In this document: positions 29,229 through 39,940 of the stretch, piece after piece
Numbering within the stretch: the first letter of the stretch is position 1
How the letters are laid out: each line of letters starts with the position of its first letter
NCBI GenBank assembly: GCA_002724585.1
Contig: PBPE01000040.1
Span: forward strand, 20,857 to 64,487
Length of the DNA stretch: 43,631 nt
Source of the DNA: Dehalococcoidia bacterium
Lineage (GTDB): Bacteria; Chloroflexota; Dehalococcoidia; Lucifugimonadales; UBA3495
Direction of reading: 5' to 3'
Notes under the pieces: generated by a model
The model's input: the letters and a program-made list of their open reading frames with translations, nothing else
The model's database searches: none
Told to the model about the DNA's origin: nothing
Made by a program: the position numbers and the translations under genes

Positions 29229-30476
29229 TTATATTGAAGCTAGCTTGGCGAGAGCTAAATTGGCTGCAACTTTTCCAGACACTATAGCTCCATTAATAGA
29301 GCCATTTTCTCGATAATCTCCACATACTAAGACTCCGTTTTCAAGATATACAGTCTGATCTTTTATTCTTGAAAATTTTGGTGATTGGTCTGGCAGTACG
29401 TGAGGTATTACGTAAGAGTTCAGATGCTCCCAATCGTCAACTTCATTGCCGAACCAATCTCGTGCTTGTGTTACCACATCTGACATCATGTCCAAATCAT
29501 TGTCATATTTGTTACCTAGGACTGTTATTGATATTAACGATTTGCCGTTTGGCGCGTATGACATTGATACATTACTAGGGACGCATAAACTATTTATGGG
29601 TCCGTAGCCTGTTCCGTTTAGCGCTAGATAATCTTTGATGCCTGGCGACTTGTCGGCACAAAAGTAAATGCACGTTGAGCCTTTATATGAGGGATACGGT
29701 ACTTCTATAAGGGTTTCTGCGGAAGGACCGTCAGTAGCGACGATCACAGTATCGGCGTTAATATGGTCACCGGAAGATGTCTCGATCGCAGTTCCTGTTA
29801 CGCGTTTTACATGGGTGTTCAATAGAGTTGACTTATGAGGTAGTGATTGTCCCATTTGCGAGGGAATAGCCTGAATTCCTTGCTCTGGAAGAGTCGTCTC
29901 ACCCGCTGACATCATTGAGAATATGAACTCAAACATGATACTTGATGTGACCAATTCGCTATCCCCGAATACCCCGCCTAATAGTGGCCTAAAGAAGGTT
30001 TGGATGATCTGTTCGGAAAAGCCTAGGTTTTTCAGATATTGGCGACTCTGGATATCCTCGCCATTGAAAATGTCATTTAGAGATTTGCTTTTGAGTGCTC
30101 TCCGGAGTAATCCAACTTTCAACTTGTCCTGTAATGATCCTATCGGAGCGCGAAGAGTATTCAGTAAATTTATAGGCTTACGCCAAGGGTCAGCCACTTT
30201 ATGGAACTTATTGTTTATGCGCACGAGACTTCCGGGATAGAACTCATGCAAGTTGAGGGATTCGTAATCTAGTTCCTGCTTAGTGTCAGGATAGGCTGTA
30301 AATAAGACTTGAAACCCTCTATCAAGTAAATATCCATTGATGTAGTCTGTTCGTAGCCTACCCCCTACGGAATCAGATTGGTCTACTAACAAAAATGGTG
30401 TATTTGAGCGATGTAATGCTCGTGCACAGGAAAGCCCTGCCAATCCTGCCCCGACTATTATCACATCATATTTCAT
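29229..30476 (-). CDS. FAD-dependent oxidoreductase (amine oxidase / protoporphyrinogen oxidase / phytoene desaturase-like)
   Basis: IIVGAGLAGL, VGGRLRTD, LDRGFQVLFTAYP, CGDY...SINGAIVSG. Confidence 0.85.
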   Translation of the reverse strand: MKYDVIIVGAGLAGLSCARALHRSNTPFLLVDQSDSVGGRLRTDYINGYLLDRGFQVLFTAYPDTKQELDYESLNLHEFYPGSLVRINNKFHKVADPWRKPINLLNTLRAPIGSLQDKLKVGLLRRALKSKSLNDIFNGEDIQSRQYLKNLGFSEQIIQTFFRPLLGGVFGDSELVTSSIMFEFIFSMMSAGETTLPEQGIQAIPSQMGQSLPHKSTLLNTHVKRVTGTAIETSSGDHINADTVIVATDGPSAETLIEVPYPSYKGSTCIYFCADKSPGIKDYLALNGTGYGPINSLCVPSNVSMSYAPNGKSLISITVLGNKYDNDLDMMSDVVTQARDWFGNEVDDWEHLNSYVIPHVLPDQSPKFSRIKDQTVYLENGVLVCGDYRENGSINGAIVSGKVAANLALAKLASI

Positions 30477-31863
30477 AGTCTTTGGACTTTCCTAGATAGT
30501 GATTTAGTGCTTCCTCAATATGTGAAAATATGTGCGTGTATCCGCTTTGCGATAACTTGGTGGAATCTACCCTGGTGCTCGCCAAGATAGTCTCCTTGCC
30601 CATTTGCCCAAACATAATTTTTATTATGAAAGCTGGTATTGTGGCTACGGTAGGCCTGTTTAGGGTTGCTCCTAGCTGTCTGGTAAATTCTTCGTTGGTT
30701 ACCGTGTTAGGAGAAGCAATGTTTATAGGGCCTTCTACCGTCGAATTCAACATCACGTGATGGATTGCGCAGATAGCGTCATCCAGGCTAATCCAACTCA
30801 TATATTGTTTGCCATGTCCAATTTTGCCACCAAAGCCTAGTTTGAAAGGCATCAGCAGTTTTTTTAGTGCGCCTCCCATCGGGTTTATTACTACCCCAAA
30901 GCGTAAATTTACAACACGCATTCCTTGGTCAGTAGCGGATCGTGTAGATTGTTCCCAATTTTCAACTACTTGAGCAAGGAATCCGGCTCCATTTGGAGAT
31001 TGTTCATTTACTAAATCGTTTCCAGCATCTCCGTAATATCCAGTAGCCGACGCGCACAATAGAGCTTTTGGAGGGCATTTCAAATGTGATAGTGATTCAG
31101 TAAGAAACTTAGTGCCATTGATTCTACTATCGGAGATTCTTCCTTTTTTCTTTTTAGTCCACCTACTTTCCCCTACATTCTCTCCCGCCAAGTGGATAAC
31201 GTAGTCAAAGCCCTCAAGGGATTCAATATCGATGATATGGTTTAAAGGGTCCCAAAAAATGGTCCCTTCATCCTCTAAGTCGGAGGTGCGGACCAACCTA
31301 ACTACCTGATGGCCGCCAGTAGATAGATACGAGCTTAAAGCTTGGCCGATTAAACCTGTAGATCCGGATATTAGTATCTTAGTTATTCCATCTGATTGAT
31401 ATCTGCTATGGGATAGTAAGTCTGAACGGAGAACGTTGTGTCTGTAGGTGAACATCTTTTGTAGCAAGTTCTTCACGATGGGCCCACCTAATATATTTCC
31501 TACTATCCCACCACGCATAGAAAACTCTATTTCATCTTCTAATATGCATGTTTCTTCATCTTGTGGTTCCATTTTATGGATATGTTTCCAATAGGCGAAG
31601 GGGCCTTTGATGAGAATGTCTGCGAATTGGCGATCCTGAATGAAATCGATATGTTTCAAAAACCACTTAGAGGATAATGGCCCAAGTTTAGTCTTGATTG
31701 TGATAGTTCCATTATCTTCAATGCTTCCTAACTTCTCTATAGTTTCGGCCGGTTGCCAAGGCGGGGTTAGTCTCTCAAAGGCTCCTTCTCTACAATGCCA
31801 ATTAAAAACCGTGGTTGCTGAGTGGTTTAATTGTGATCGCTTAACGTAGGTTATAGTCTTCAT
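30466..31863 (-). CDS. TIGR01777 (YfcH/SDR39U1) NAD-dependent epimerase with N-terminal SRPBCC domain
   Basis: VFNWH.REGAFERLTPPW and GPFAYWKHIH (SRPBCC), then ISGSTGLIG, HLAGE, SATGYYG, LRFGVV, QYMSWISLDD. ATGA overlap with the upstream gene at 31860-31863. Confidence 0.9.
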   Translation of the reverse strand: MKTITYVKRSQLNHSATTVFNWHCREGAFERLTPPWQPAETIEKLGSIEDNGTITIKTKLGPLSSKWFLKHIDFIQDRQFADILIKGPFAYWKHIHKMEPQDEETCILEDEIEFSMRGGIVGNILGGPIVKNLLQKMFTYRHNVLRSDLLSHSRYQSDGITKILISGSTGLIGQALSSYLSTGGHQVVRLVRTSDLEDEGTIFWDPLNHIIDIESLEGFDYVIHLAGENVGESRWTKKKKGRISDSRINGTKFLTESLSHLKCPPKALLCASATGYYGDAGNDLVNEQSPNGAGFLAQVVENWEQSTRSATDQGMRVVNLRFGVVINPMGGALKKLLMPFKLGFGGKIGHGKQYMSWISLDDAICAIHHVMLNSTVEGPINIASPNTVTNEEFTRQLGATLNRPTVATIPAFIIKIMFGQMGKETILASTRVDSTKLSQSGYTHIFSHIEEALNHYLGKSKDYEI

Positions 31864-32606
31864 GTAGTGGTCCTTTTCAGTACGGACCCAAGCCCTCCAT
31901 CTACTCCGATTACTTGCCCTGTGACCCATGTATTCTGCCTGTCTAATAGCCAGGTGATTGCTGATACTACCTCAGATGGTTGTCCTATTCTGGAAATAGG
32001 GTGTATAGACTCAGATGAGCGCAATGCGCTTTCATTTCCCGTGATTTGAGAAGTCATGGGCGTATCTATAAGTCCAGGAGCTACACAGTTGACACGTATT
32101 CCTCTGGTTGAGTATGTTGCAGCAGCAGATAATGTCAGCCCTATGACGCCTGCTTTAGTCGCGCTGATCGCGTCGTGGTAGGCCATTCCTATTTTACCGC
32201 AAGCGGCTGCTATTAATACAATTGAACCACCTCTTTTCATCATAACTCTGGATGCGCCTTTCACAGTACCCATAGCACTGGTAAGGTTAGTATCCACGAT
32301 GTCCTGCCACTGCTCAGATGATATTGTGTGGGATGGTTTTAGGAGAGATGATCCTATACAGTTTACAGTCCCATACAGAGAACCTAATACCTCTTCGGCC
32401 TCTGTATACGCTTTACTAATAGATTCAATATCCATGGATCCGATTATGATAATTTTAGAGTCAAGTTCGGCTCCAAGTTCTCTTAGGGTTGTAGAATCTC
32501 GTCCAGCTAACACAAGGTGTTCCTCTTGATCTCTTAAAGTCCTAGCCAGAGTAGATCCGATACCTCCGCTAGCACCCAAAATTAATGTGCCGCTCGTGTT
32601 TTTCAT
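31860..32606 (-). CDS. Atypical SDR oxidoreductase (HxxIxxxK in place of YxxxK)
   Basis: LGASGGIG, NLTS, HDAISATK, IRVNCVAPG, TGQVIGVDGG. Confidence 0.85.
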   Translation of the reverse strand: MKNTSGTLILGASGGIGSTLARTLRDQEEHLVLAGRDSTTLRELGAELDSKIIIIGSMDIESISKAYTEAEEVLGSLYGTVNCIGSSLLKPSHTISSEQWQDIVDTNLTSAMGTVKGASRVMMKRGGSIVLIAAACGKIGMAYHDAISATKAGVIGLTLSAAATYSTRGIRVNCVAPGLIDTPMTSQITGNESALRSSESIHPISRIGQPSEVVSAITWLLDRQNTWVTGQVIGVDGGLGSVLKRTTT

Positions 32607-34072
32607 AAGTCCTCTTTATGCAGTTGGATGTACCGGCCGATATTGTTTATCATGCCAGAGAAAACTAAGTTATGAATCGGGTACAGTGCGTACCAATACA
32701 ACAATCCTCCTACTCCTACGGGATCAAAGATTGCGGTTTGGGTTAGTATGGTCTCATTTTCCTTCTGACTTACTTGGAATTCTAACCATGCGCGTCCCGG
32801 GACTTTCATCTCGGCAATCAGCAGAAGTCGTTGGAATGGTTCGTACGCCTCTACCCGCCACCAATCTATAGTGTCCCCCACAGTAATGGTTTCAGGGTGT
32901 TTACGACCTCTACGAATACCAACGCCTCCAAATAATAGGTCTAGGAATCCACGTATCTGCCACAACCAATTTCCGTAGTACCATCCTTGTCGACCGCCAA
33001 TACGTTGTATTGGTATAAATGCCTCTTGCTGTCCTACAGAGACACTTATCCTTCGCATATCGAGTAGTCTTGGCCCAAACCTTACTCCTCCCCAATGTTT
33101 GATCGGACCTGAAGAAGATTGAGCGTCAGACCATCGCGTTTCGGCAAAGTCTCGATCTTCATCTTCTAGTGCTTTACTAATGGCATCAGTAACACCACTT
33201 GGTATAAGGTTGAAATAATGTTGTGCTGTGGTGCTATTTACTACACTGGGATATCTCATGCTATCGATTAGTTTGCGCCCTATGCGAGCATAAACGGGAG
33301 TGACGAGTCCCAGCCACAGACTGGACAGTCTAGGAGTCAGGACAGGTACTGCTAACATGAGGCGTTTTAGTCCTCTCTGTCGGGCGTACTCTTTCATGAT
33401 TTGCCCGTAGGACATTATTTCAGCACCTCCAATTTCTACGATTATATCTTCGTATTTCGGCAATTCGATGCTTTCTATTAGATATTTGAGTACGTCGTCT
33501 ATTGATATTGGTTGCGATGGGGTTGAGACCCATCTGGGAGTTATCATTACTGGCAAACGTTCTACTAGGCTGCGGACTAACTCGAAAGATAAGCTGCCTG
33601 ATCCAACAATGACGGATGCTCTGAATTCAATAACGGGGACCTCTGATTCTCTTAATATCGACCCTACTTCCTGCCTGCTCAGTAGGTGCGGCGATAACTT
33701 CTTAGTTGATTCGCCAAGGCCACCAAGATAGATTATTCGTCTGATCCCGGCAGATTTAGCAGCATAGGCGAAATTCCTAGCACATTCTGTTTCTAGATCC
33801 ATAAAGGATTTAGCTGACCCCATCGAGTGGACTAGATAAAATGCTGTATCAATTCCATTCATAGCATGTTCAATCGATTGGGAACTTAGCATATCTCCCG
33901 ATATAATTTCGGTGTTTTGCGATACTTTTGATGCAAGGGAATCTGAATTTCTTGCAAAACACCGAACGCTATACCCCATTTTTTCCAACATTGGGACTAA
34001 TCTGCCGCCAATGTAGCCCGTTGCTCCTGTTACTAATATCCGGTGATTTCTGGTTAGGCTGGTATTAGACAT
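32603..34072 (-). CDS. NAD(P)-binding SDR + DUF2867 protein (YbjT-like)
   Basis: ILVTGATGYIGGRL, YLVHSM, SPHLLSR, GSGSLSFE; C-terminal IGG..GWYY, DWWRVE, AEMKVPGRAWLEF. Confidence 0.9.
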   Translation of the reverse strand: MSNTSLTRNHRILVTGATGYIGGRLVPMLEKMGYSVRCFARNSDSLASKVSQNTEIISGDMLSSQSIEHAMNGIDTAFYLVHSMGSAKSFMDLETECARNFAYAAKSAGIRRIIYLGGLGESTKKLSPHLLSRQEVGSILRESEVPVIEFRASVIVGSGSLSFELVRSLVERLPVMITPRWVSTPSQPISIDDVLKYLIESIELPKYEDIIVEIGGAEIMSYGQIMKEYARQRGLKRLMLAVPVLTPRLSSLWLGLVTPVYARIGRKLIDSMRYPSVVNSTTAQHYFNLIPSGVTDAISKALEDEDRDFAETRWSDAQSSSGPIKHWGGVRFGPRLLDMRRISVSVGQQEAFIPIQRIGGRQGWYYGNWLWQIRGFLDLLFGGVGIRRGRKHPETITVGDTIDWWRVEAYEPFQRLLLIAEMKVPGRAWLEFQVSQKENETILTQTAIFDPVGVGGLLYWYALYPIHNLVFSGMINNIGRYIQLHKEDL

Positions 34073-34268: not shown

Positions 34269-35744
34269 TCAATTGTGTTTTCTCCCCAGATCGTAAAGTA
34301 GTTTAGCTTGCTTATATGCAGCTAAACTACGAATGCGGGATGTTTTGTAATCAACAATAGGCCTTGGATAATCTACACCTAAACTGATCTGCGCTCTTTG
34401 TAATATATCTGGTGGTGCTAACCATGGATGGTGAATCCAGGGCTCAGATAATTGAGATAATTCAGGTATCCATTGATGGATAAATGATCCATCAGGGTCG
34501 GTTTTTTGAGATTGTGTCAGCGGATTAAAGATCCTAAAGTAGGGTGATGAGTCGGTCCCGCACCCGGCTATCCATTTCCATCCTAAATTATTACTTGCCT
34601 CGTTGGCATCTACCAATAAGTAAGAGAACCACTCTGCCCCTTTCTGCCATGGTATAAGTAAATTCTTAATTAAGAAAGATGCCACGACCATGCGAAGCCT
34701 ATTATTCATCCAGCCAGTGCTTTTAAGCTGTCTCATTGCTGCGTCGATTATGGGGTAACCCGTCTCCCCTGATTGCCAAGCAGTTAAGTGGTTTTTATTA
34801 TCGTCCCAAATGAAATGATCGAGAACTGTATTGCTTGGTTCGCTATTAGATGCGGGAAAATGCGTAATGATGTAGTTAGCGAACTCTCTCCAGCCTAGTT
34901 CTGTAATGAATTTGTCTTCATGTAAAGTTGCTGAAGCTGTTGCCTTCAGCCTTTGTTGGTCTAGTTCTTGGAGTATCTGAGCCGGTCCTATTTCTCCGAA
35001 GCTTAAATGGGGCGATAGCATCGACGTTCCAGTAATATCTGAACGCTCTCTATTTTCGGAGTAATATTCGTATGAAGTTAGGAGAAATTCTTTAAGTTTT
35101 CTATTGGAGGATGCCTCTCCGGGGGTCCACATTGGTTTTATACATGATACTTCCCTAAAACTTGAACCTTCGTTCATTTCTGTGGGTTGGACTGTATTAG
35201 GCCACAGCATAGGACTCGAAAATTGTTCGGACCTCAGTGGCAGAGGCAGTGGGTTTGGTTCTTGTAGCGTTAAACAATGTTTCCAAAATGCGCCGAACTT
35301 TTTATAAGGATGATTGTTAGCTTTATATATAGTCCTTGGATCAAATAAATAATTAGAGTTGAATGCTTTCAATACGATATTCTGTGGTCTTAGAGCTTCT
35401 TCGACCAAACTCTGTGTTTGTATTTCAGAGGGTTCGTATCTTTCGTTAAAATAGACATGATCAGCGTGTGTTTCCGAGGCCAGGCCGCGAAGCTCTTTAT
35501 GGGCATATCCTTTCCTGATAATTAGACGAGAACCCATGTGGCTTAATGAATCTGACAAATGTCGCAAGGAAACTCTAAGCCACCGTTCAGAATGAGGGCC
35601 GTTGAAAGTACAATCACTTGACTTGTCGTTCCATATAAATACTGGGATAACAGGTTTTTGAGAGGATAGAGCTGCGCTTAGAGCTAGATTCCCTTCCAAG
35701 CGCAGATCGTTCCTAAACCATACTATTACTGGTTGCGGTTGCAT
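34269..35744 (-). CDS. phrB: Deoxyribodipyrimidine photolyase (class I/III CPD-type)
   Basis: WFRNDLRL, TSMLSPHLSFGEI, GWREF, TGYPIIDAAMRQL, NRLRMVVASFL, NNLGWKW, PYFRIFNP; Trp-triad and Asn378 equivalents retained. Confidence 0.93.
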   Translation of the reverse strand: MQPQPVIVWFRNDLRLEGNLALSAALSSQKPVIPVFIWNDKSSDCTFNGPHSERWLRVSLRHLSDSLSHMGSRLIIRKGYAHKELRGLASETHADHVYFNERYEPSEIQTQSLVEEALRPQNIVLKAFNSNYLFDPRTIYKANNHPYKKFGAFWKHCLTLQEPNPLPLPLRSEQFSSPMLWPNTVQPTEMNEGSSFREVSCIKPMWTPGEASSNRKLKEFLLTSYEYYSENRERSDITGTSMLSPHLSFGEIGPAQILQELDQQRLKATASATLHEDKFITELGWREFANYIITHFPASNSEPSNTVLDHFIWDDNKNHLTAWQSGETGYPIIDAAMRQLKSTGWMNNRLRMVVASFLIKNLLIPWQKGAEWFSYLLVDANEASNNLGWKWIAGCGTDSSPYFRIFNPLTQSQKTDPDGSFIHQWIPELSQLSEPWIHHPWLAPPDILQRAQISLGVDYPRPIVDYKTSRIRSLAAYKQAKLLYDLGRKHN

Positions 35745-35776
35745 TTAATCTATCTCCCACACTGAATTACAATATT

Positions 35777-36961
35777 TCATGCTAGTGGGCTAACCGCTTT
35801 TGGTGTTGGGTAATCAGATACATTTAGTTGATGATCCATATCAGCATTAGATTTAAACGCTTTGCGTGTTCGCATCCATGACGATGTCGAATCCTTATAC
35901 ACAATGATGGGAATAGTTGTGGCTTCAAGCAACTTTCGAAGAGTATAGCCCTTTATCCGGTCAATTAGTCCGGGGTTGACCAAGCTCTGCGGAATCATAA
36001 TCAAGTCCGCGTTTTCGCTTTCAGCCCATTTCGCTAGATGTTTGAACCCGTGCTCAGTCGCTAATATTACTCCGGCACATAGTTCATTATTATTAAGATG
36101 GTCCAGCTGCTCAACAAGATACTCTCTCCCCATTAAACCTAGATCTTGAGTATGTAACACTTTAGTGGAAGTTTTTTCTACTTCTCCTGACGGATATGGA
36201 TTCACTAAATATGATGCTGCTGAAATGTCATATAACATAACGTAAGCTTCATTTTCTGCTGCGAACGAACTTATCTCTTCACGCATTGAGTCAATTTGTT
36301 CATTTTGATTATCGTCAGTCACCATCATGATGCGACTAATCGGAAAAGGTATTTCTTCGGATAGCTTCATTAGGGGCAGGGAAGCTGTAGGACCATTCTG
36401 TTTCCTAACTCGCTCGAGATAATTTATCGCGGCATCAATTATTCTCTCGTCATTTGAGACAAATCCACGGAATTCTTTTCCTTCTGTAGAGATCCCGCCT
36501 AGCCCGAAAAGCTCAGCACTAGATGTTTCCCAACCTATAAATATTATGGGGTTTGGTGATGCCGATATTAGGTACCACTGGTTTTCAAAAGCTAATAAAT
36601 CAGTTGGTAATGATACCCATTGTTCTGCGGGAACGTTGTTCTGGTCAGGCACGTTACCTTGACCAAAACCAACTACCGGAATTCCCAACGTGCTCATGTA
36701 CGTATATCTCTCAGTCTCGTTTAGGAATTTATCCACTGTTTGAAAACCGACATACAGAGTTGATTGGGAATCAGGCACTTTCGTTATTTCATTTTCTATT
36801 TCACGTGTGATTTGAAGCATCTCTTGACTGGAATAGAGAGACTTGAAGCCCTCAAGCGGTGGACCTCCTGCTCGTAGTTCTTTATCCATCCGATCAATAA
36901 AGGCATCGACCCCAGAAGGATCCAATACTGTTTTGTCGGCGTCTAGAATAGTCCATTTCAT
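35777..36961 (-). CDS. DICT sensory domain fused to a universal-stress-protein-like domain
   Basis: MLQITREIE, LYVGFQ...ERY, ENQWYLI and GFVSNDER are DICT-like; the C-half has IMMVTD...WAESENADLIMIP...LLEATTIPIIV (USP-like). Confidence 0.65.
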   Translation of the reverse strand: MKWTILDADKTVLDPSGVDAFIDRMDKELRAGGPPLEGFKSLYSSQEMLQITREIENEITKVPDSQSTLYVGFQTVDKFLNETERYTYMSTLGIPVVGFGQGNVPDQNNVPAEQWVSLPTDLLAFENQWYLISASPNPIIFIGWETSSAELFGLGGISTEGKEFRGFVSNDERIIDAAINYLERVRKQNGPTASLPLMKLSEEIPFPISRIMMVTDDNQNEQIDSMREEISSFAAENEAYVMLYDISAASYLVNPYPSGEVEKTSTKVLHTQDLGLMGREYLVEQLDHLNNNELCAGVILATEHGFKHLAKWAESENADLIMIPQSLVNPGLIDRIKGYTLRKLLEATTIPIIVYKDSTSSWMRTRKAFKSNADMDHQLNVSDYPTPKAVSPLA

Positions 36962-36984
36962 TTTTATACTCCCGATAATTGTGA

Positions 36985-37374
36985 TTAAAACTGCTTTTGC
37001 TTCTTATGTTTTAGGGCAAATTTGATCAAAGCCAAATCTGGTTTCCATTGAATGTTTCTTGATTTAAATATTTTATTTAACAATCCAGGTTTAGCTTGTT
37101 CTCCTACTATCACTATTGGCTTGTTATTGTTGAGAACCCTGATAGTCAATCCAGTGCGTTTAAGCACTTCACTGGCATCAGAAAGATTTTTTGACTTTTG
37201 GGGTAGTTTCCTACCCCAATGGGTCAAAATTTTGTCTACTAGTGACAGTTCTATGTCTATGACGTTTCCTGTTCCGGTAATGTTGCTGGTCATTTCATCT
37301 ATTTCTACTCGCACGGTTCCAGTCACATTAAAACGTTCATTTTTAACATCTATCACTATGTTTATGACTCCCAA
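36985..37374 (-). CDS. Hypothetical protein (partner of upstream small ORF)
   Basis: ORF overlapping the 3' end of 37362-37562; probable TTG start at 37374. Confidence 0.55.
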   Translation of the reverse strand: MGVINIVIDVKNERFNVTGTVRVEIDEMTSNITGTGNVIDIELSLVDKILTHWGRKLPQKSKNLSDASEVLKRTGLTIRVLNNNKPIVIVGEQAKPGLLNKIFKSRNIQWKPDLALIKFALKHKKQKQF

Positions 37375-37562
37375 GTGCGGAGTCTTACACTCCCATTCAA
37401 ATTCCAACGTGCCTGAGGAGCATCTGCGCCGGTAGATTTAGGTACCATAACTTCCATATCAGCAAAGGTGTATTCGATAGTGGTTCCTCTGCGATTAAGG
37501 AATTCGTAAAGCGACTCAGCTAATTGTGTCCATGTGCCAATTTCCATGTTGTTGTCTGTCAT
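37362..37562 (-). CDS. Small conserved hypothetical protein
   Basis: AAGGAGA RBS; TWxxLA..LY..L..RG..IEY.F...EV.VP..TG..A..A.W.LNG pattern resembles a small family I recall from actinobacteria and haloarchaea. Confidence 0.7.
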   Translation of the reverse strand: MTDNNMEIGTWTQLAESLYEFLNRRGTTIEYTFADMEVMVPKSTGADAPQARWNLNGSVRLRTWES

Positions 37563-37615
37563 TTTTTTCTCCTTATTGTTGTTTAATTCATGACTTTGTT
37601 CTTGGTCTAGTAGAT

Positions 37616-37855
37616 TCATGATAGGTTTATCCTTCCCAGAATTTCAGCTTCTGCCAACGTTAAGCTAGGGTCGTTTATTCTTCTGGTGGAGCGTGCAATT
37701 ACACCAGGCAAACTTGGACTCAATACGTTTAACGGGTCTAGAACTCTGTGAGAATCTGCTTTTCGAGAGACCATAAACCTTTCCCATTTATTTATAAGGT
37801 CACTCATTGCAGTACGAGTTTTTATGATTAATGTATTTATCTCTGTTATGTCCAT
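37616..37855 (-). CDS. Small hypothetical protein
   Basis: AAGGAG RBS upstream, operon orientation. Confidence 0.55.
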   Translation of the reverse strand: MDITEINTLIIKTRTAMSDLINKWERFMVSRKADSHRVLDPLNVLSPSLPGVIARSTRRINDPSLTLAEAEILGRINLS

Positions 37856-37911: not shown

Positions 37912-38109
37912 TCAAGCTAAGGTTGTTACTGCTACAACGCCCGATACTGCTACTAGCAGATAGATGATCCTAGATAGAATATTTACTTCTCCAAACGATT
38001 TGCCTCCAGCAATGAGGGCCACCAAGTCAAATTTAAATAAGCCCACCAGACCCCAATTGAGCGCCCCTACGGCTGCGAGAATAATTGCTATGTTTTGCAC
38101 CATTGTCAT
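37912..38109 (-). CDS. DUF378 (YuzA-like) small membrane protein
   Basis: VGALNWGLVGLFKFDLVA...SRIIYLLV signature; AAGGA RBS. Confidence 0.9.
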   Translation of the reverse strand: MTMVQNIAIILAAVGALNWGLVGLFKFDLVALIAGGKSFGEVNILSRIIYLLVAVSGVVAVTTLA

Positions 38110-38223
38110 AATTATGTCCTTTCATTTATGTAGATTAAGTTATACAACCTTGTGTCGTTAATTGTGGAACACCTGGTGTTTATAAATATCTCCTTTCACT
38201 GATTACAGTTCTTTATTAGTTTT

Positions 38224-38242
38224 TATAGAACTTGTTCTACAT
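38224..38242. promoter_or_regulatory. Candidate operator, copy 1 (TATAGAACTTGTTCTACAT)
   Basis: Contains the palindrome TAGAAC-TT-GTTCTA; 16/19 identical to 39761-39779. Confidence 0.6.
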
Positions 38243-38257
38243 TAATTAACTTAAATG

Positions 38258-38286
38258 TTGACAGTGTTCTACGTTATGTGTATTAT
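38258..38286 (+). promoter_or_regulatory. Rightward sigma70 promoter
   Basis: TTGACA (38258-38263), 17 nt, TATTAT (38281-38286). Confidence 0.6.
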
Positions 38287-38314
38287 TCTAGACATCTAAG
38301 GGCTTGTTTGTCAA
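38285..38314 (-). promoter_or_regulatory. Leftward sigma70 promoter for the photolyase block
   Basis: Minus-strand TTGACA (38314-38309), 18 nt, TAGAAT (38290-38285). Confidence 0.6.
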
Positions 38315-38462
38315 CTATATCTTACAAATTGCTTGAAACGTAGTATTTGTTAGACATGAAATTAAAAACAGATGATCTGTGTAGGTGTAGAGATAAGGCA
38401 AGTCCGAAATAGATTTAGCGGGTGAATCCAAAATATACAGACCTGCTGAAGAGAGGTGAGAA

Positions 38463-38657
38463 GTGTTCTGGTTTAATTCGTGTCAGAAATGTAAGGGAGA
38501 TCTATATGAGAGCAGGGATAGTTTTGGTCCGTTTGTAACGTGTATTCAATGCGGCCGTTATTTCGCTGGGACAGTATCTGAGCCTCAGGAAATAGATGAG
38601 AACGTATTTATACCTGAGCAGGTTCGTCGCCGTAAGCCTCGTAGGAAAGCTGCGTAA
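38463..38657 (+). CDS. Small zinc-ribbon protein with basic C-terminus
   Basis: CQKC-GDL...CIQCG; RRRKPRRK tail; GAGGTGA RBS, GTG start. Confidence 0.75.
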   Translation: MFWFNSCQKCKGDLYESRDSFGPFVTCIQCGRYFAGTVSEPQEIDENVFIPEQVRRRKPRRKAA

Positions 38658-38722: not shown

Positions 38723-39601
38723 TTAGTCTGAAAGGAGCTGTCCGATGGGTACTTCTAAGGCCTCGGCAAGTTTTAAAACTACCCCGATCGTCAGGTTCTG
38801 TTTCCCGTTCTCGACGGCACTTATGTAGGTTCTGTCCAATGAAGAGGCTTGGGCTAATTGTTCTTGATTCCAACTTCTTCTTTTTCTCAAATCCTGTACT
38901 CTGGAGCCCATCACTATTAAGTATTCATTTAGACTTAAAGGATCCTTTGAGAGTCCTCCAAGGCGGCGAGCCTCCTGGATTGCACTGTATGCGTCGATGG
39001 CAAATCCGTCCGGTCCAAGTCCCTCAACTTGATCGCTATCTGTAACGCCGTATCCTCCTAGTAATATTCTGGGTGCATCGGGCAGTCTTCTCAATTGCGT
39101 GATTATTTGCTCTACTGTACTAAGGTCTTCTTTCATAGAAACGGATAAGGCGACAAGTTCGGGGTGGCCCTGGCGTACGAACTCAACTAAATCGTGAGTT
39201 GGTGTGTCTGCTCCTAGGAATTCAACGTCCCATCCGTCTACTAGTAAAAGGTCTGCGATCATTCGGGATCCCACGTAATGGAAATTACCTTCTACGCATG
39301 TTACAACTGCCTTGATTCCCCATTTCGTGGTAGCGTGGTAGCGCTGTCTCATTTGGTCCATAACGTCTAGTGTCATCTGGGTTGCAAGATGCTCCTGCGC
39401 TATGTTTATGTCACCGGTGTGCCACATTTCACCGACTCGAATCTGGGATTTGCCAATAATTGAAACGAGTATGCTGACTGGGCTCAGCCCTTGGCGTATA
39501 GCATCTTCTATAACAGATATCGTGGTGTCGGGATCTCTCCGGATTAGAGCGTCTAGGTAACGATCCCTCAGTTTAGTTGTTACTAAATCGTCTGTACTCA
39601 T
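38723..39601 (-). CDS. Cobalamin-binding (CarH/LitR-type) regulator with C-terminal XRE HTH
   Basis: W-x9-EH (WHTGDINIAQEH), H-x2-G-x41-S (HYVG...ALSVS), ILLGG; C-terminal LRKRRSWNQEQLA...DRTYISAVENGKQNLT..VLKLAEALEV is an HTH_3. GGAGG RBS. Confidence 0.88.
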   Translation of the reverse strand: MSTDDLVTTKLRDRYLDALIRRDPDTTISVIEDAIRQGLSPVSILVSIIGKSQIRVGEMWHTGDINIAQEHLATQMTLDVMDQMRQRYHATTKWGIKAVVTCVEGNFHYVGSRMIADLLLVDGWDVEFLGADTPTHDLVEFVRQGHPELVALSVSMKEDLSTVEQIITQLRRLPDAPRILLGGYGVTDSDQVEGLGPDGFAIDAYSAIQEARRLGGLSKDPLSLNEYLIVMGSRVQDLRKRRSWNQEQLAQASSLDRTYISAVENGKQNLTIGVVLKLAEALEVPIGQLLSD

Positions 39602-39760
39602 ATACGAGTCCCTCCAGTGCTATAGATAGCCGTATTTGATGTGTTTGTTCATCGTCAATGTTATCTATATTGTACACGAACGTTTTATAAACGCAAGAAG
39701 TGTACGGTTTGTTGTGTGCTTGAAATAGTCATGAATGGCGTGATTGATGACTGAACAATA

Positions 39761-39779
39761 TATAGAATATATTCTACAT
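39761..39779. promoter_or_regulatory. Candidate operator, copy 2 (TATAGAATATATTCTACAT)
   Basis: Perfect 14-bp palindrome TAGAATATATTCTA (39763-39776) upstream of the B12-XRE regulator. Confidence 0.55.
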
Positions 39780-39940
39780 ACAACAGGTGTGCAAATACTA
39801 AACAACTTAATAGTAGTTGGGGAGTTTGATTTTTTGAATGATCTAGAATAATGGGAGTAGTGATGAAGGATCTGTTGAGAGCGATGATCCGATAAGATAT
39901 ACTACGTCCGCTCTCGTTTAATTCGGAAAATGGAGGATGG

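Follow-up and report, generated by a model that had tools for sequence, protein, structure and literature searches.

Among regulators that sense light through vitamin B12, the best described is CarH. In the dark its adenosylcobalamin (AdoCbl)-bound tetramer blocks transcription; light cleaves the Co–C bond, a bis-His state forms, and the tetramer dissociates (PMC10979010). The cobalamin-binding domain (CBD) of such photoreceptors is marked by a W-x9-EH motif, and the His that follows the Trp is the upper ligand in the bis-His light state of TtCarH (PMC9304148). The SignatureFinder study (Yu et al. 2024, PMC11796333) defines light-responsive CBDs by four elements, GxxW, EH, GxxH, and GxxxP, a signature that was validated experimentally on TaCarH, CtMerR, and two photocobilins. 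That study also records light-responsive CBDs fused to helix-turn-helix (HTH) domains at the N- and C-terminal region, as a database observation without characterization. Here, a regulator of this composition is described from a stretch of 43,631 nucleotides (the window) of the Dehalococcoidia bacterium assembly GCA_002724585.1 (contig PBPE01000040.1, positions 20,857 to 64,487 of the forward strand). It combines a CBD with a C-terminal HTH domain of the XRE type, and its features favor, with slightly better than even confidence, a one-component, CarH-like repressor dependent on AdoCbl and released by light, which probably switches on in the light the DUF378 gene and a block of DNA-repair genes.

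An earlier note on this DNA had described the protein as a CarH-type cobalamin sensor of inverted domain order, with exact W-x9-EH spacing, an H-x2-G-x41-S motif with Asn two residues before the His, and a C-terminal XRE domain in place of MerR. This description of the protein proved correct in every detail; the interpretation built upon it was supported in part, with the operator, the partner gene, and the claim of novelty requiring correction as discussed below. The order of the domains, CBD first and XRE HTH last, follows from the positions of three Pfam domains that all exceed their curated cut-offs (Table 1), with HTH_3 scoring 50.8 bits against a gathering cut-off of 23 and covering profile positions 2–54 of 55. 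No MerR family was found in the protein by Pfam at E ≤ 0.01, and its sole DNA-binding domain is the C-terminal HTH_3 with its clan relatives. The nearest solved HTH domain is that of C.AhdI (1y7y), which residues 228–287 match at 7e-9. The gene is preceded by GGAGG 8–9 nt 5′ of its ATG, as read from the sequence, and is present in a single copy in its 2.1-Mb, 72%-complete metagenome-assembled genome (MAG); two further regulator-like matches in this genome were dismissed, one as a MetH-like frame and the other as an unrelated 150-aa HTH frame.

In the sensor module, the W-x9-EH motif reads WHTGDINIAQEH at residues 60–71 (nt 39389–39424; W60, E70, H71), and the stretch around the lower ligand reads GNFHYVG at residues 105–111, with Asn106 two residues ahead of His108; a script check confirmed both, together with the spacing H108-xx-G111-x41-S153-x-S-x26-GG182/183. 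Set against the classic D/E-x-H-xx-G-x41-S-x-T/V-x22–27-GG, the protein keeps the spacing along with the His, Gly, Ser, and GG residues, and has Asn for D/E and Ser for T/V. The four elements of light-responsive CBDs are all present, as GEMW (57–60), EH (70–71), GNFH (105–108), and GADTP (130–134).

These features are shared across a sizeable family. A search of 5.8 billion proteins returned at least 217 protein clusters at E ≤ 1e-3, and 120 homologues listed among these provide the motif counts given here. PF02607, PF02310, and PF01381 occur together in 119 of the 120, in proteins of about 290–330 aa, the exception being a 173-aa fragment. W-x9-EH is kept in 118, with His directly after the Trp in 106 of these, and the strict xxHxxG-x41-Sxx-x22–28-GG motif is kept in 115, among which the residue two before the His is Asp in 86, Glu in 15, and Asn in 14. 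In a 30-sequence alignment, G57, W60, E70, and H71 are invariant, as are G111, P134, S153, G182, and G183, and H108 is at least 90% conserved.

Comparison with proteins of known structure leads in the same direction. The best sequence matches in the PDB are the CBD of CtMerR (8jbs, 2.5e-21, residues 11–188) and the photocobilins 8j2x and 8j2w (about 1.5e-20), with 8j2y also among them, followed by a methyltransferase corrinoid protein (7xcn, 6.7e-14) and TtCarH (5c8a, 1.6e-11). An AlphaFold2 model built from the 30-sequence alignment (mean pLDDT 90.3, pTM 0.73) has as its top Foldseek matches in the PDB the photocobilins (8j2w), CtMerR (8jbs), and the TtCarH CBD, with TM-target up to 0.86; the superposition on 8jbs gives an rmsd of 2.2 Å over 208 columns and a TM-target of 0.84. 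Signature, sequence, and fold thus agree in supporting a sensor module of the CarH-type or photoreceptor kind. A two-copy complex model scored 0.57, with 0.00 for the best control. Among proteins of solved structure, 20 of 30 pairs and 1 of 23 single chains attain this mark; the pass may nevertheless only mirror likeness to the CarH-type dimers already solved. Separate runs of the model agree in at least 84% of contacts, with partner pLDDT of at least 79, and the predicted interface is head-to-tail, bringing helix-bundle residues 66–86 of one copy against Rossmann residues 127–145 of the other.

However CarH-like its working may be, the regulator is not a CarH: it lacks MerR and falls below the cut-off of the NCBIfam equivalog NF052513 TransRegCarH (70 bits against 400, E 2e-19), the match being confined to the CBD (residues 11–196, profile positions 83–260 of 274). 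The match to TIGR02370, which describes the MtaC/MtbC/MttC corrinoid proteins, likewise lies below its cut-off, at 67.2 bits against 215.3. The source genome has genes for corrinoid adenosyltransferases of both the PduO and CobA types, so that AdoCbl can be made there from cobalamin.

As the HTH recognition region (L255-D-R-T-Y-I-S261, E264, and G266-K-Q-N269) is invariant in the 30-sequence alignment, a conserved operator is to be expected. Relatives of the regulator were therefore compared in their genomic context: with one genome taken per species (185,579 species), 157 of 184 pattern-matching stretches encode a relative, and the best 80 of these 157 serve for all locus comparisons. The closest are L001, a 98% identical relative from Dehalococcoidia, and L002, with 91% protein identity. 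The earlier note had proposed TAGAA-N4-TTCTA as the operator. This dyad is real in the window, where it occurs exactly twice (38226–38239 and 39763–39776) against 0.03 expected from shuffles, none of 100 of which reached two, yet it does not hold as the operator of the family. It is not enriched genome-wide (9 sites against 11 of the reversed control pattern), and among the 80 loci the near-identical L001 alone has exact copies close to the regulator (two sites), the other exact matches being one about 1.1 kb upstream in L003 and one far away in L056. Rather, it is the inner part of two window sites of another type, TGT-N12-ACA, at 38224–38241 and 39761–39778.

This second motif came to light when k-mers of the intergenic region directly upstream of the regulator, taken from 54 loci, were compared with those of 363 distant intergenic regions. 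The words enriched upstream of the regulator (ATAACAT, GAATATA, ATTCTAC, and related ones), when aligned by eye, form one 18-bp palindrome, TGT-N12-ACA, with an AT-rich center. In 22.6 kb of 300-bp regulator-upstream regions it occurs 60 times (2.65/kb), as against 0.15–0.30/kb elsewhere in the loci and 0.22–0.57/kb in the same regions for the control patterns with N10, N11, N13, or N14 and for ACA-N12-TGT. At least one exact copy is found within 300 bp upstream of the regulator, by tblastn coordinates, in 52 of 78 loci (the 80 without L001 and L002), compared with 12 of 399 far intergenic regions (0.20/kb). A blind count of dyads put forward ATGTT-N10-AACAT in 9 loci, which is the same 18-bp palindrome, one base wider. 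A separate element, CCAAGTCCCACTTGAAC (CAAGT-N3-ACTTG), was seen about 178–205 nt upstream of the regulator in seven loci of one sub-clade (L017, L037, L041, L043, L045, L050, and L052), beyond the start region of the DUF378 gene.

DUF378, a small membrane protein of 60–70 aa, is the most conserved neighbor of the regulator, its gene adjoining that of the regulator in 44 of the 80 loci (tblastn). In 41 loci it is divergent and directly upstream, typically with 85–115 bp between the start codons, and in the window, L001, and L002 it follows the regulator on the same strand. DUF378 is thus the conserved partner in the family, and likely a core target of the regulator. The palindrome nevertheless tracks the regulator and not DUF378, because 20 of 36 loci without a DUF378 neighbor also have an exact copy, beside 32 of 42 with one.

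The arrangement of the sites is as distinctive as their sequence. Where two exact palindromes occur, 11 of 13 loci have them separated by 31–33 bp. In the 32 short divergent spacers between DUF378 and regulator genes (85–124 bp), two exact sites are present in 8, one in 17, and none in 7; all eight two-site spacers have their sites 31 or 32 bp apart, and many of the single-site spacers show, by eye, a partner with one mismatch at equal distance.

In the window itself, a position weight matrix (PWM) made from 50 unique sites of other loci, the window and its two closest relatives being excluded, identifies five sites of at least 10 bits, all in the two intergenic regions flanking the regulator gene, as compared with 102 such sites in the 2.1 Mb of the genome (0.049/kb). 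When the two intergenic regions are compared with those of L002, the islands of conservation fall on the operator-like sites, with diverged sequence in between. At the site nearest the regulator (39659–39676) the TGT and ACA are kept and the flanks have diverged, and at 39761–39778 both halves have changed symmetrically, from TAGAA..TTCTA to TCGAA..TTCGA. On the DUF378 side, the site at 38277–38294, whose center lies 32 bp from that of the 38309 site, is fully conserved; the degenerate site at 38256–38273 is inside a conserved block; and that at 38224–38241 is mostly conserved, with TAGAA changed to TCGAA. The centers of the sites in the DUF378 promoter region are 30, 32, 21, 32, and 95 bp apart, near whole helical turns. 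The 39659–39676 site overlaps, by eye, a possible TTGCGT-16-TACAAT promoter of the regulator, from which a probable autoregulatory role may be inferred. Also conserved among the window, L001, and L002, outside the 18-bp motif, is a block at 39838–39852 containing ATTCTAGATCATTCA (minus-strand reading), upstream of a divergent acyl-CoA dehydrogenase gene.

Considered together, these features suggest how the system would work. The CBD would bind AdoCbl base-off/His-on through His108, with Trp60 and the Glu70-His71 pair capping the adenosyl group. By analogy with CarH, the dark state would be an oligomer built up from head-to-tail CBD dimers, probably a tetramer, which would place its C-terminal XRE HTH domains on paired 18-bp TGT-N12-ACA palindromes about three helical turns apart. 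These sites overlap promoters predicted for the regulator's own gene and for DUF378, which the bound oligomer would occlude; behind the DUF378 promoter lies a block that includes DICT, photolyase, and several oxidoreductase genes. On exposure to near-UV to green light the Co–C bond would break, His61 could become the second axial ligand, and the oligomer would fall apart, leaving the genes derepressed. The 31–32-bp pairing would fit a dimer of dimers that sets one XRE pair on each palindrome, both on one face of the DNA.

Several observations count against such a light-released repressor. In the sensor, Asn106 takes the place of the usual Asp/Glu, as it does in 14 of 115 homologues. The HTH domains lie outside the confident interface of the dimer model, and a head-to-tail dimer leaves unexplained how two of them would be presented to one palindrome. 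Of 78 loci, 26 show no exact TGT-N12-ACA site in the 300 bp that precede the regulator. Moreover, the PWM was seeded with TGT/ACA-anchored sites, so that its scores for the outer triplets are circular and only the statistics of spacing and location are independent; both promoter calls in Table 1 are consensus matches only; and contigs from RNA libraries do not prove transcription. Neighbor genes are heterogeneous, with photolyase in 6 of the 80 loci, photolyase-block genes in 17, RND transporters in 25, and cobT/S/U in 11. Finally, no biochemistry on any member of the CBD-XRE family was found in the literature.

The gene neighborhoods indicate how far control may extend. Beyond DUF378 in the window, the same strand carries in order three small open reading frames (ORFs), the DICT gene, photolyase, NmrA-DUF2867, SDR, epimerase-DUF1731, and amine oxidase genes, whose short gaps or overlaps suggest a single operon. 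The three small ORFs have no Pfam or NCBIfam match, and their conservation does not reach beyond L001 and L002 save for the 85-aa ORF, which is also found by the regulator in L039. Contigs from RNA libraries of four studies cover the regulator and DUF378 genes, and one spans 34583–37679, from photolyase into the small ORFs, which shows neither a single transcript nor its strand. Among the contigs listed for four RNA-library runs none crosses 38206–38304, and those of the regulator end at 39642 (X15) and 39647 (X16); these gaps would fit promoters at both places and prove nothing, and no transcript ends were drawn from the contigs, which are strandless.

The earlier note had the regulator controlling the adjacent photolyase block, and expected its homologues to be linked to photoprotection genes. 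Operator-like sites do stand ahead of the block, and genes of its kind (photolyase, YbgA-like, epimerase-DUF1731, and NmrA-DUF2867) are found in 17 of 80 loci from several phyla (15 of 78 once L001 and L002 are set aside); the conserved partner, however, is DUF378, and photolyase itself is near the regulator in only six. Counted within 8 kb of the regulator in the 80 loci, the more frequent neighbors are an AcrB-type RND transporter (25), a Zn-dependent alcohol dehydrogenase (17), epimerase with DUF1731 (14–16), ERG4/DUF1295 (13), RDD (12), cupin (11), and CobT/CobS/CobU (11), followed by DICT (8–9), YbgA-like (DUF1722) (7), photolyase (6), and NmrA with DUF2867 (6). Sites of at least 12 bits also occur beyond the regulator's own upstream region, ahead of DICT (L033, L060), epimerase-DUF1731 (L036, L047), a YbgA-like gene that precedes photolyase (L004), and NmrA-DUF2867 (L023). 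In L004, a Candidatus Fraserbacteria MAG, a pair of 21.0 and 18.8 bits, 32 bp apart (1863–1912), lies about 6 kb from the regulator, ahead of an SDR gene and two unassigned genes. This pair suggests multi-operon regulons in some carriers. On the evidence of gene context the link to photoprotection is real, if partial, around a regulon core of DUF378.

DICT homologues adjoin the regulator in 8 of the 80 loci, six of them beyond the close relatives of the window at 42–53% identity, and some of these loci have operator-like sites upstream of DICT. The C-terminal half of the DICT protein of the window is weakly Usp-like (residues 209–356, E 0.031, below cut-off), and DICT is among the domains annotated in a network of putative light-responsive photoreceptors (PMC11796333, legend of Fig. 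9). The zinc-ribbon-like ORF has no Pfam family above cut-off; by tblastn, L001 has a 64-aa match at 95% identity and L002 a 54-aa match at 91%, and L033, L060, and L080 hold short matching pieces placed between the regulator gene and that for DICT.

A wider regulon in the source genome was considered and set aside. Of 43 PWM sites of at least 12 bits in its 2.1 Mb, 30 are inside ORFs, and no target is claimed beyond the window; intergenic sites of this strength outside it neighbor unrelated genes (TonB-dependent receptor, class-V aminotransferase, GFO/IDH, luciferase-like monooxygenase, metallo-beta-lactamase fold, MFS, and SDR). The top match in the genome, on contig C65, was treated as chance. 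This 5.6-kb contig carries a TonB-dependent receptor and a type VI secretion system (T6SS) VasI fragment, odd for Dehalococcoidia, and is possibly a contaminant.

Table 1. Positions of the regulator, its domains, candidate operator sites, predicted promoters, and neighboring genes in the window
Feature	Position	Strand	Description
Regulator gene	38723..39601	-	292-aa ORF, ATG start; CBD followed by XRE-type HTH
B12-binding_2 four-helix bundle, residues 11–82	39356..39571	-	PF02607, E 5.8e-13; holds G57xxW60, H61, E70H71
B12-binding Rossmann module, residues 97–189	39035..39313	-	PF02310, E 3.8e-16; holds G105-N-F-H108-xx-G111, G130xxxP134, S153, GG182/183
C-terminal HTH_3 (XRE/Cro-C1 type), residues 236–288	38738..38896	-	PF01381, E 1.7e-13
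Operator-like site TGTTATCTATATTGTACA	39659..39676		Exact TGT-N12-ACA, 15.1 bits; 58–75 nt upstream of regulator ATG
Operator-like site TATAGAATATATTCTACA	39761..39778		13.6 bits; encloses dyad 39763–39776
Weak site CGTAGTATTTGTTAGACA	38339..38356		8.3 bits; island conserved in L002
Operator-like site TGTCAACTATATCTTACA	38309..38326		15.7 bits; spans -35 hexamer of predicted minus-strand promoter; island conserved in L002
Operator-like site TGTGTATTATTCTAGACA	38277..38294		14.2 bits; spans -10 hexamers of both predicted promoters
Degenerate site TGTTGACAGTGTTCTACG	38256..38273		ACG for ACA; <6 bits; 21 bp from 38277 site
Weak site TATAGAACTTGTTCTACA	38224..38241		6.7 bits; encloses dyad 38226–38239
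Operator-like site TGTAGATTAAGTTATACA	38129..38146		14.7 bits; 20 nt upstream of DUF378 start codon; fully conserved in L002
Predicted sigma-70-type promoter TTGACA-18-TAGAAT (11/12)	38285..38314	-	Consensus scan; reads towards DUF378
Predicted sigma-70-type promoter TTGACA-17-TATTAT (11/12)	38258..38286	+	Consensus scan; reads towards 64-aa zinc-ribbon ORF
64-aa ORF, zinc-ribbon-like	38463..38657	+	CxxC-x17-CxxC; convergent with regulator; downstream of strong predicted promoter
DUF378 gene	37912..38109	-	65 aa, small membrane protein; PF04070, E 3e-19
Three small ORFs (79, 85, 140 aa)	36985..37855	-	Between DUF378 and DICT genes
DICT-domain protein	35777..36961	-	394 aa; DICT 23.9 bits against cut-off 23.8
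Photolyase/cryptochrome-family gene	34269..35744	-	491 aa; Pfam DNA_photolyase and FAD_binding_7; NCBIfam matches
NmrA+DUF2867, SDR, epimerase+DUF1731, flavin amine oxidase	29229..34072	-	Same-strand genes beyond photolyase

The main rival to a light-released repressor is a sensor of cobalamin availability, in which binding of B12, whatever its upper ligand, would decide whether the XRE domain sits on DNA and so adjust the salvage or remodelling of corrinoids and their transport, any effect of light being incidental. The neighborhoods lend this reading some substance, as 11 of 80 loci have cobT (DBI_PRT), cobS, and cobU genes next to the regulator, for the most part following it on its own strand, and RND transporter genes come after it in 25; in NCBIfam, moreover, the methyltransferase corrinoid protein family is matched at E 1.2e-18, near the 2e-19 for CarH. 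It must nonetheless contend with the conserved W-x9-EH cap and four-element signature that set light-responsive CBDs apart, with the finding that its best matches of known structure, in sequence as in fold, are photoreceptor CBDs, and with sites ahead of photolyase-linked genes in several phyla (a YbgA-like gene in L004, NmrA-DUF2867 in L023). As a replacement for light control it is considered unlikely. The two readings are compatible and not exclusive, because an AdoCbl-dependent repressor, as in the case of CarH, reports both B12 and light.

The elaborate site array raises a further question, that of whether the protein might instead be a light- or B12-dependent activator or dual regulator, whose oligomer on paired sites would recruit RNA polymerase or loop the DNA, the effect of light being to shut genes off or to shift expression between the facing promoters. 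With up to six sites and two predicted promoters that have overlapping -10 hexamers, the DUF378 promoter region is over-elaborate for a simple repressor. Yet the strongest pair of sites lies directly on the -10 and -35 hexamers and two sites fill most of the 85–115-bp divergent DUF378-regulator regions, both of which fit occlusion, and CarH is itself a dark-state repressor (PMC10979010); activation is accordingly judged quite improbable. A mode like that of AerR, in which hydroxocobalamin would be bound after photolysis and the signal would pass chiefly by way of another protein, for instance the DICT-Usp protein, draws on the DICT neighbors in 8 of 80 loci, the mention of DICT in the SignatureFinder Fig. 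9 legend (PMC11796333), and the possible role of His61 as upper ligand, but is very improbable for a protein whose HTH is itself so strongly conserved and is matched by a conserved operator, in a family where 72 of 80 loci are without a DICT neighbor.

The light-released repressor would belong to a family whose home is mostly marine Dehalococcoidia. Of the best 80 loci, 65 are from Dehalococcoidia, Chloroflexota, or SAR202 MAGs, and the other 15 from Planctomycetota (including the cultured Candidatus Uabimicrobium amorphum), Fraserbacteria, Bipolaricaulia, Fimbriimonadales, Latescibacterota, Bdellovibrionales, Myxococcota, Thermodesulfobacteriota, and others. At least half of the sampled words of a 2.1-kb stretch around the regulator are present in 14 marine or seawater metagenome DNA runs from eight studies, one of which may be the source of the window, and the same stretch appears in six RNA-library runs at shares of 0.38–0.48. 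In databases the homologues are named "cobalamin-dependent protein" or "MtbC1/XRE family regulator"; the JGI name "methanogenic corrinoid protein MtbC1/XRE" looks like a transfer of names by domain.

The suggestion in the earlier note of an undescribed system was too strong, as the family is sizeable and CBD–HTH fusions at both termini are already in print (PMC11796333). No study of a CBD-XRE regulator or its operator was found in the literature, although the supplements or network of PMC11796333 may already contain the cluster, and no paper linking DUF378 to light was found. What is new here is the operator, its pairing, the DUF378-centered regulon, and the taxonomic home. A more ambitious conclusion, held tentatively and at somewhat less than even confidence, is that these proteins form an uncharacterized, multi-phylum class of B12-photoreceptor repressors in which a dark oligomer clamps two 18-bp palindromes three turns apart and DUF378 is a core member of the regulon.

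If this is so, the consequences reach in several directions. DUF378 would gain its first functional clue, as a light-induced membrane function, and DICT-Usp and zinc-ribbon proteins would be tied to B12 photobiology, with a first testable context for DICT-Usp proteins beside a photoreceptor. Marine Dehalococcoidia, which are non-phototrophs, would sense light via B12, so that in abundant heterotrophs of the sea a vitamin that many of them must acquire would link gene expression to light. B12 light sensing would not be bound to MerR regulators: a different DNA-binding domain, the opposite domain order, and a paired-palindrome logic would give a second, independently wired B12 transcription switch to set beside CarH, and possibly a tool responsive to green light whose operator is a simple palindrome. 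The predictions of operator, target promoters, and residues for mutation have become precise enough to be taken directly to the bench.

Comparison with known systems shows which parts of this design are shared and which are not. With CarH/LitR (TtCarH, MxCarH, BmCarH) the regulator has in common the two-part CBD of W-x9-EH bundle and His-on Rossmann fold, the His after the Trp, a head-to-tail dimer as predicted by modelling, and probably dark-state repression of its own promoter region and of photoprotection-type genes. Unlike them, it has a C-terminal XRE HTH and not a MerR winged helix, Asn two residues before the ligand His, a match to the CarH equivalog in the CBD part only, well under cut-off, and operator-like sites that are paired 18-bp palindromes. 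CarH reportedly uses tandem 11-bp direct repeats. PhrR of Halomonas is reportedly a B12- and light-dependent LitR-type regulator, of the MerR type, that controls photolyase and related genes; it resembles the present system in placing a B12 photoreceptor over photolyase and neighboring oxidoreductase genes, and differs in that its DNA-binding domain and operator are unrelated.

At the DNA-binding end, the closest solved HTH domains are those of the XRE controller proteins C.AhdI (1y7y) and C.BclI (2b5a), which, unlike the regulator, are stand-alone HTH proteins of about 75 aa that have no sensor domain. XRE controller (C) proteins bind palindromic operators as cooperating dimers.

At the sensor end, by sequence, the CBD is nearer to the CtMerR/photocobilin branch than to TtCarH. 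CtMerR of Chloracidobacterium thermophilum (8jbs/8jbt) and SignatureFinder "Group 2" share with it the GxxW, EH, GxxH, and GxxxP elements; CtMerR binds AdoCbl, responds to green light, and forms a tetramer, but has an N-terminal MerR domain and an Arg at the position of His61 (PMC11796333). The photocobilins (SasPcob 8j2w/8j2x, AbDPcob 8j2y) have the same CBD, ranking first by fold and second by sequence. In these the CBD is accompanied by a biliverdin-binding globin-like domain, in some cases also by a diguanylate cyclase, and the output is directed at enzymes or partner proteins, whereas the regulator has neither the globin-like nor the cyclase domain and has a DNA-binding output. Photocobilins thus show the CBD used as a portable light module.

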